Notes: generated by a model not told the origin, from the letters alone. DNA of 4,312 bases from Escherichia coli (GCF_003334405.1 NZ_QOWM01000033.1), one strand, 5' to 3'. Shown: positions 2,233-3,479, counted from the first letter of the stretch. Numbers and translations are program-made.

Positions 2233-3183
2233 TTATTTGCGTAGTCTGACCTCTTCTACCGCATGATTAGCACTTTTCGTCAGGATTAAACTGGCGCGCT
2301 CACGAGTAGGTAGAATATTTTGCTTTAAGTTCAGCCAGTTGATCTCTTTCCACAATGTCATGGCAGTCTTAATCGCTTCTTCTTTAGTTAATTTCGCGTA
2401 GTTATGAAAATAGGAATCCGGGTCGGTAAAAGCCCCTTCGCGGAATTTCAGAAAACGGTTGATATACCATGTCTGAAGTAAGTCTTCCGGTGCATCAACA
2501 TATATCGAAAAATCGACAAAATCAGAAACAAATACATGATGTGGATCGTGTGGATAATCCATCCCGCTCTGTAAGACATTTAACCCTTCAAGAATTAAAA
2601 TATCAGGCTGAACAACCGTTTTATCTCCATCCGGGATCACATCATAAATAAGATGTGAGTAAACAGGTGCTGTAACGTTTGGCACGCCGGATTTGAGATC
2701 GGAAACAAACTTCACCAGGCGATGCATATCATACGATTCCGGGAAGCCTTTCTTCTTCATCAGACCACGTTCTTTCAGAACCTGATTAGGGTGAAGGAAG
2801 CCATCTGTAGTGATCAGTTCAACACGACGATGTTCCGGCCAACGGCTTAATAGCGCCTGCAATACACGGGCGGTTGTACTTTTCCCCACCGCGACACTGC
2901 CAGCAATACTGATAATGTAAGGAATGCGTTGCCCGTTGGTACCAAGAAACTGTTCCAGAACTGCCTGACGGCGCAGATTCGAGCTTATATAGAAGTTCAG
3001 CAAACGTGACAAAGGTAAATAGATCTCGGCAACTTCTTCTAACGAGAGATCTTCATTAATACCTTTGAGACGGGCGATCTCATCTTCCGATAACGTCATA
3101 GGTACGGAATCACGCAGAGCTGCCCACTGGTTGCGGTCAAACTGTAGGTAAGGCGTCATTAACGTTTGCTCTTTTATACTCAT
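2233..3183 (-). CDS. coaA: Type I pantothenate kinase (CoaA)
   Basis: The ORF-track frame 2233-3339 encodes 368 aa, but the protein from Met53 onward ([20 protein letters not shown]..., 316 aa, Walker A motif GSVAVGKST) matches E. coli CoaA as I remember it. The start is therefore placed at the ATG at 3183-3181 (minus strand). The 52-codon upstream extension is treated as non-coding; start choice is the main uncertainty. Confidence 0.9.
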
Positions 3184-3479
3184 AAGCATGTTTCTGGCGG
3201 TCATAGCTCTATCGGCAAAGCGATATTTGCCATGGCGCGTCACAGTTCTGTTGAATGGGTTAATGGGCAGGAGGGTAACACCAGATGGGGAGGAATAATA
3301 AGAAAAAATCTCTGCCAGGAAGCTATCGTTGAAAAGCAATGTGACAGATATTCCATCTGATAAAAAGAATTATGGTTTAGCAGGAGCGCATTGTTGAGCA
3401 CAATGATGTTGAAAAAGTGTGCTAATCTGCCCTCCGTTCGGCTGTTTCTTCATCGTGTCGCATAAAATGTGACCAATAA

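Follow-up and report, generated by a model that had tools for sequence, protein, structure and literature searches.

Gene Content of the Window

The window is a stretch of 4,312 nucleotides of Escherichia coli DNA (GCF_003334405.1, NZ_QOWM01000033.1). Its plus strand carries murB (214-1242), birA (1239-2204), and thrU-tyrU-glyT-thrT (3545-3986) and then leads toward tufB, while coaA is located on the minus strand. Gene content was established with an ORF listing, a tRNA scan, and BLAST searches against 5,426 complete E. coli genomes. Coordinates of MG1655 (NC_000913.3) were converted by subtracting 4,171,843 from the genome coordinate.

The coaA coding sequence (2233-3183, minus strand) encodes type I pantothenate kinase, with 316 aa and the stop codon TAA at 2233-2235. 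The same 316-aa product, starting from 3183, is given by RefSeq in the EC600 record and in MG1655 (b3974, 4174076-4175026). Residues 1-316 are 100% identical to PDB 1ESM (E = 4e-213), the relatives of the protein are annotated as type I pantothenate kinase and belong to PF00485 (PRK family), and the P-loop motif GxxxxGK[ST] is found in the translation as GSVAVGKST. The gene in the window is therefore E. coli coaA (rts, b3974; PDB 1ESM/1ESN/1SQ5), identical in sequence and without any difference.

Downstream of coaA, an intrinsic terminator is present at 2197-2226 (minus strand), consisting of a GGGGAG-CGAATA-CTCCCC hairpin (2226-2209) and a T-run. The RNA 3' ends of coaA were mapped to 4174046 by Term-seq and to 4174045 by SMRT-Cappable-seq, which correspond to window positions 2203 and 2202, respectively. 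These ends overlap the last bases of the convergent birA, and the Term-seq label of the site reads antisense to birA.

Transcription Start Site and Leader

According to SMRT-Cappable-seq of MG1655 in M9 (Yan et al. 2018, PMC6131387, Supplementary Data 1), a reverse-strand transcript spans 4174045-4175107. It is the one reverse-strand transcript that fully covers b3974, it covers no other gene, and 56 capped full-length reads begin at its transcription start site (TSS). In this one dataset, obtained in one medium (M9), the coaA TSS (NC_000913.3 4175107, reverse strand) is the A at window position 3264 on the minus strand; no entry for it was found in the Kim 2012 supplements. The +1 at A3264 had been predicted from a conserved TGnTAnnnT motif ahead of finding the TSS data, and prediction and mapping fall on the same base.

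Because the TSS is at 3264, the 5' untranslated leader of the mRNA measures 81 nt (3184-3264, minus strand), and two thirds of the open frame extending upstream from coaA, which is discussed below, lie upstream of the TSS. The middle part of the leader is poorly conserved and rich in indels, and its predicted fold is not significant (z = -1.7; z = -1.2 for a longer hypothetical transcript). In 23 of the 81 loci, short ORFs end at a TGA overlapping ATG 3183. They were rejected as small upstream ORFs, being largely a trivial consequence of the ATGA sequence.

A Conserved Promoter Block

Immediately upstream of the leader and reaching into it, there is a near-invariant block of 48 bases (3262-3309, minus strand), in which identity reaches 90% or more in almost all alignment columns of 79 loci. 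By its sequence and the position of the TSS, this block reads as the coaA core promoter, TGTTACCCT, of the putative sigma-70 extended -10 type with a C-rich discriminator. Its putative elements on the minus strand are a T-tract (3308-3303), a -35-like TTATTA (3301-3296), a variable spacer (3291-3287), TG (3280-3279), the -10 hexamer TACCCT (3277-3272), and the discriminator CCTGCCC (3271-3265). In terms of conservation, the block is made up of the T-rich ATTTTTTCTTATTATTC, a variable spacer of 5-6 nt in which 1-nt indels are tolerated, and the invariant ATCTGGTGTTA(C/A)CCTCCTGCCCATTG. All loci keep the first T, the A, and the final T of the hexamer, where polymorphism is common only at the weakly constrained third position (C/A). 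The -35 element is poor (TTATTA, with an 18-bp spacer), the TG stands one base before TAnnnT as in extended -10 promoters, and the mapped +1 lies 8 nt past the hexamer.

Among the 79 aligned upstream regions, conservation of the block exceeds that of the coding region and shows no relaxation at third positions. About 45 of the 48 positions are conserved across Enterobacteriaceae, and a core of 25 nt reaches Erwiniaceae; the whole discriminator and the six bases upstream of the TG (ATCTGG) are invariant across the two families. The core is also found upstream of coaA in Pantoea alhagi, as well as in 62 metagenome contigs, each of which carries a CoaA homologue too. In E. coli, the block is single copy and unannotated. 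The coaA block shares TG-n-TAnnnT, a weak -35, a C-rich discriminator, and an indel-tolerant spacer with extended -10 (TGn) sigma-70 promoters, but differs from them in that its conservation goes beyond the usual needs of RNA polymerase contact.

Several other identities of the block were considered and rejected. A repeated element is contradicted by its single copy, and a further 58 metagenome hits have no relation to it, several of which look like opposite-strand ribosome-binding sites of other genes. A search of the block against Rfam gave no match, and RNAalifold gave no consensus structure for it. For a sigma-32 promoter, CCCCATCT resembles the -10 element, yet the CCCC sits in the variable spacer. 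No spacing fit was found by eye, against the consensus sequences, for sigma-54, sigma-E, or sigma-28 promoters, nor for FadR, PhoB, NtrC, or ArcA sites.

The Open Frame Upstream of coaA

Upstream of 3183, the coaA frame stays open for 62 codons, up to a TAA at 3370-3372 (minus strand), and for 52 codons counted from the TTG at 3337-3339, the first start-type codon after this stop, which is located 75 nt upstream of the TSS. The preliminary description had listed in-frame ATGs at 3339, 3204, 3189, 3183, and 3159. The last four are indeed ATG on the minus strand, whereas 3339 is TTG, and GTG 3243, a further in-frame start-type codon, was absent from that list. Since the TSS maps to 3264, TTG 3339 is absent from the mRNA. 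In dinucleotide-preserving shuffles of the upstream 360 nt (n = 5000), at least 62 codons stayed open in 5.1% of the cases and at least 52 in 8.4%; the 62-codon run is thus within chance and unremarkable.

The conservation comparison of the 52-codon extension with orthologues, which the preliminary description had proposed as a check, was carried out on coaA loci (n = 80) taken from various species of Enterobacteriaceae, the CoaA identities being 90-100%. In these loci, between 2 and 83 codons are open before Met1 (median 10.5); 52 or more open codons are found in only eight of the 80 other loci, and the frame is shorter in the remaining 72. Even in E. albertii, with 99% CoaA identity, a stop occurs after 21 codons. 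When six loci (five Citrobacter and one Intestinirhabdus) were compared with the window, substitutions at the three codon positions numbered 73/72/74 within 3184-3339, as against 1/0/41 in the first 30 coaA codons. Net length differences across the extension are not confined to multiples of 3 (35/22/21 for the residues modulo 3).

The extension is therefore non-coding, a chance open frame over the promoter and the leader. It had been taken for an ambiguity of the CoaA N-terminus, which does not hold for a stretch that is unconserved, carries no codon-position signal, and lies mostly upstream of the TSS at 3264. The annotated start holds because the open stretch before it consists of the promoter and the non-coding 81-nt leader. 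The ambiguity that is left is narrower than first claimed, namely 3189 versus 3183, two codons apart, and the extent to which Met9 is used.

The TAA at 3370-3372 is changed in some Escherichia genomes, and 70 codons are open in three such loci (L002-L004). CoaA family entries in databases have 308, 311, 316, 318, 325, 368, and 424 residues. For two metagenome-derived sequences (P0001 and P0003), gene callers predict a 424-aa 'CoaA' that spans the thrU promoter region. Recognizing that the frame misleading gene callers into a CoaA of 368 or 424 residues is promoter and leader is a matter of annotation hygiene; beyond this, the finding is ordinary and of little importance.

Candidate Start Codons of the Long Form

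The annotated start codon (Met1, MSIKEQ...) is located at 3181-3183 on the minus strand and is ATG in 77 of the 81 Enterobacteriaceae loci. Two codons upstream, the ATG at 3187-3189 (MLMSIKEQ..., 318 aa) is a possible co-start, being ATG in 66 of 81 loci and GTG in two, while the ATG seven codons upstream (3202-3204, 323 aa), which is ATG in 29 of 81, is an unlikely start. The placement of the start at 3183, giving a 316-aa CoaA, was already made in the preliminary description and agrees both with RefSeq (EC600 and b3974) and with the presence of this ATG in 77 of 81 loci.

No Shine-Dalgarno (SD) sequence is found at any coaA candidate start within the mRNA, and the same weakness is seen across the 81 loci. 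The anti-SD duplex energies are +0.2 kcal/mol for 3183, -2.1 for 3189, -2.1 for 3204, -2.2 for 3159, and -3.3 for 3339, compared with a background median of -2.1, and with -4.3 for murB and -6.4 for birA. The earlier remark that none of the candidates has a strong SD is borne out by these values, which are near background, with murB and birA far stronger. Opening the mRNA from -15 to +15 would cost a predicted 7.4-7.7 kcal/mol at 3183 and 3189 (7.4 at 3183), 6.8 at 3159, and 12-14 at 3204 and 3243 (12.4 at 3204).

At least one ATG of the pair 3183/3189 is present in all 81 loci. Codon 1 is AAA in four loci (three Atlantibacter and one labelled Citrobacter freundii), all of which keep the ATG at -2; conversely, -2 is AAG in 11 loci (Kosakonia, Phytobacter, and one Enterobacter isolate), five of which have a stop at -3. 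Within the species, 5398 of the 5421 E. coli genomes share one sequence over the 71 nt of the initiation region. Both codons of the pair are conserved and equally accessible, and the sequence alone gives no ranking between them. We favour 3183 over 3189 because of the annotation, the 316-residue chain in PDB, and the mass reported for the protein (see below), and 3183 would thus be the main start of the long form.

According to Poly-seq of MazF cleavage (Sauert et al. 2016, PMC5001579, Table 1), the enzyme cuts at an ACA 8 nt before the AUG of coaA. This ACA (3189-3191, minus strand) overlaps the ATG at -2 (AC-AUG), and the processed mRNA would start 1-2 nt before AUG 3189.

A Proposed Short Form Starting at Met9

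The ATG at 3157-3159 (minus strand) is codon 9 of coaA, in frame and downstream of the TSS at 3264, so that it lies inside the mRNA, and would start a short form of 308 aa. Two kinds of E. coli CoaA chain are present in PDB, one of 316 residues (1ESM/1ESN) and one of 308 residues that begins at Met9 (1SQ5, residues 9-316), and the latter was crystallised as a folded protein. The computed masses are 36,359 Da for 316 aa and 35,428 Da for 308 aa; the difference of 931 Da corresponds to residues 1-8. In 1992, Song and Jackowski reportedly detected CoaA products of 36.4 and 35.4 kDa and ascribed them to two in-phase initiation sites; the computed masses agree with these values. The same work is said to describe CoaA as a protein of low abundance, with which the weak promoter and the absent SD would fit. 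The mention of two CoaA forms in the preliminary description, made with low confidence, is plausible and consistent with the PDB chains of 316 and 308 residues.

The Met9 ATG is present in 67 of the 81 loci. Among the 14 loci that have Thr in its place, eight have a Met7, and neither methionine is found in six of the 81. The SD energy upstream of Met9 (-2.2 kcal/mol) equals background, and none of the 67 loci with this ATG reaches -3.5. SD sequences are common at internal starts and are not obligatory there.

Codons 4-8 (AAA GAG CAA ACG TTA; 3160-3174, minus strand) show the strongest synonymous-site constraint in the gene, which ends at Met9. After normalisation for amino acid, no other 5-codon window has so low a codon entropy, and not a single one of 100,000 randomly drawn sets of five codons came out as low; in codons 10-13, the entropy is back at the gene average. 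The constraint on codons 4-8 could equally serve an open initiation region for Met1 alone.

Known 5'-proximal in-frame internal starts, such as that of speA (bioRxiv 10.1101/520783), share with coaA an in-frame AUG and an isoform that lacks a few N-terminal residues. CoaA differs in that the eight missing residues include no signal sequence, so the two forms would not be expected to be localised differently. The main text of the retapamulin ribosome profiling study (Meydan et al., bioRxiv 10.1101/520783) does not mention coaA, the gene is absent from the supplements of the tetracycline-profiling paper and of the Salmonella start-site paper, and text searches for two CoaA forms found nothing.

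The protein P0002 (368 aa, 59 member sequences) is an E. coli-like CoaA variant that has EQTFLTPY for EQTLMTPY and thus lacks Met9. This suggests that at least some strains can do without the putative internal start.

Alternative Readings of the CoaA N-Terminus

One alternative would be that the upstream frame is coding after all and that CoaA is extended, starting from TTG 3339 (368 aa) or from ATG 3204 (323 aa). There are 62 open codons and one stop in the 120 codons upstream in frame, some automatic gene callers deliver products of 368 and 424 aa, and ATG 3204 does lie within the mRNA. However, the TSS at 3264 rules out 3339, 72 of the 80 relatives do not keep the frame open, substitutions show no codon-position bias, and indels are not multiples of 3. 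The sole conserved part of the extension is kept alike at the first, second, and third codon positions and accepts 1-nt indels within its spacer, and 3204, an ATG in just 29 of 81 loci, is poorly accessible at 12.4 kcal/mol, all of which makes an extended CoaA exceedingly improbable. A case can more readily be made for ATG 3189 as the true start of the long form (MLMSIKEQ..., 318 aa), with 3183 being an annotation convention. The ATG at -2 is kept in 66 of 81 loci, with GTG in two more, and in four loci, where codon 1 reads AAA, the pair has no other ATG; ATG-CTT-ATG is nearly invariant in nucleotides; the unfolding cost is the same as for 3183; a weak AGG is found about 7 nt upstream in many other genera; and many database gene calls are of 318 aa, one cluster having 1432 members. 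On the other hand, 3183 alone suffices in the 11 loci with AAG at -2 (five also with the stop at -3), a 318-aa product would have 36,604 Da and not the reported 36.4 kDa, the long form in PDB has 316 residues, and the RefSeq start is 3183. Initiation of the long form mainly at 3189 is thus considered quite unlikely, and a start at 3183 is preferred.

It is also conceivable that 3183 is the single start and that the 308-aa form arose as an artefact of overexpression, engineering, or proteolysis. Met9 has no SD and gives way to Thr in 14 of the 81 loci, neither the main text on retapamulin nor the tetracycline-profiling supplement lists coaA among internal starts, and the 1SQ5 chain could be an engineered construct. 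The synonymous constraint on codons 2-8 would be expected in any start region, but it stops sharply at codon 9. Absence from the profiling lists is weak evidence, however, for a gene expressed as weakly as coaA (56 TSS reads). Moreover, the difference of 931 Da matches the loss of exactly residues 1-8, a Met7 is gained in eight of the 14 loci without Met9, and the two forms were reportedly attributed in 1992 to two in-phase initiation sites. A single start has a minor but appreciable chance of being the whole story. The comparative data are compatible with an internal start at Met9, which is rather likely to be used, and we infer that both 3183 and 3159 serve as starts in vivo on the native mRNA.

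Proposed Expression of coaA

Taken together, coaA would be transcribed from a single weak promoter of the extended -10 kind (TG-n-TACCCT, the -35 being poor and the discriminator C-rich) with its +1 at 3264, and the open frame upstream of 3183 is a chance frame across this promoter and the 81-nt leader, forming no part of CoaA. Translation would be initiated without an SD, in a weakly structured region that is rich in A and U and contains three AUGs in frame. Two of these, the neighbouring 3189 and 3183, would give rise to the long form, with 316 aa and 36.4 kDa from 3183, and Met9 at 3159 to the short form of 308 aa and 35.4 kDa, which would lack only eight variable N-terminal residues. We hold this explanation as a whole, from the +1 at 3264 and the non-coding frame to the SD-less start and the long and short forms, with considerable confidence.

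Both the start and the two forms of coaA, like its weak expression signals and its TSS, can be found in the literature or in public data and are thus already known. What is added here is the comparative evidence on the conserved ATGs and the matching of the promoter block to the published TSS. No prior description was met of the extreme conservation of the promoter block or of the synonymous freeze in codons 4-8, and neither demands a new mechanism. It is doubtful that the block and the synonymous freeze between Met1 and Met9 reflect a dedicated, so far undescribed gene-level control of CoA synthesis beyond the known feedback inhibition of the enzyme. Candidates for such control could be a factor or a kinetic control of the ppGpp/DksA type acting on the C-rich discriminator, or a selected ratio of long to short CoaA. 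The conserved weak promoter and the SD-less start are of modest interest for the engineering of CoA supply, since CoaA sets the cellular CoA level.

Other Features Between coaA and thrU

In the current annotation of MG1655, the locus tag b3975 is missing between b3974 (coaA) and b3976 (thrU); it presumably belonged to an ORF formerly called in the coaA-thrU intergenic region and later withdrawn. A likely promoter of the thrU-tufB operon is located at 3502-3530 on the plus strand (TTGCAT-17 nt-TAGAAT, with a GCGCGC discriminator and an A/T-rich tract before it). It is divergent from coaA, lies about 270 bp from the coaA TSS, and gave no hit in a simple promoter scan.

On the complement of the promoter block (3266-3332, plus strand), a strong ribosome-binding-site-like GCAGGAGGG is followed after 9 nt by ATG 3285 and an ORF of 15 codons. 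A small plus-strand gene of this kind (AGGAGGG-N9-ATG 3285) was rejected, since in Klebsiella, Atlantibacter, and Pantoea the ATG is missing, displaced, or replaced by ATT, and 1-base indels shift the frame; the ORF is probably fortuitous.

Finally, we also identified an inverted repeat or hairpin, GTGATGCTTTC-loop-GAAAGCATCAC, which 45 of 78 loci carry ahead of the promoter block at a distance of about 25-60 nt; it is not found in the Escherichia/Citrobacter clade. Its position is equivalent to about 3345-3315 of the window (loci L019-L081, columns 27-61 of alignment A1). Counts of G-U versus A-C pairs (32 versus 27) do not reveal the strand of the GTGATGCTTTC/GAAAGCATCAC hairpin. Some compensatory changes are present in it, and 69.7% of its cells are paired, a level reached by none of 500 shuffles and contrasting with 32-53% in slid controls.
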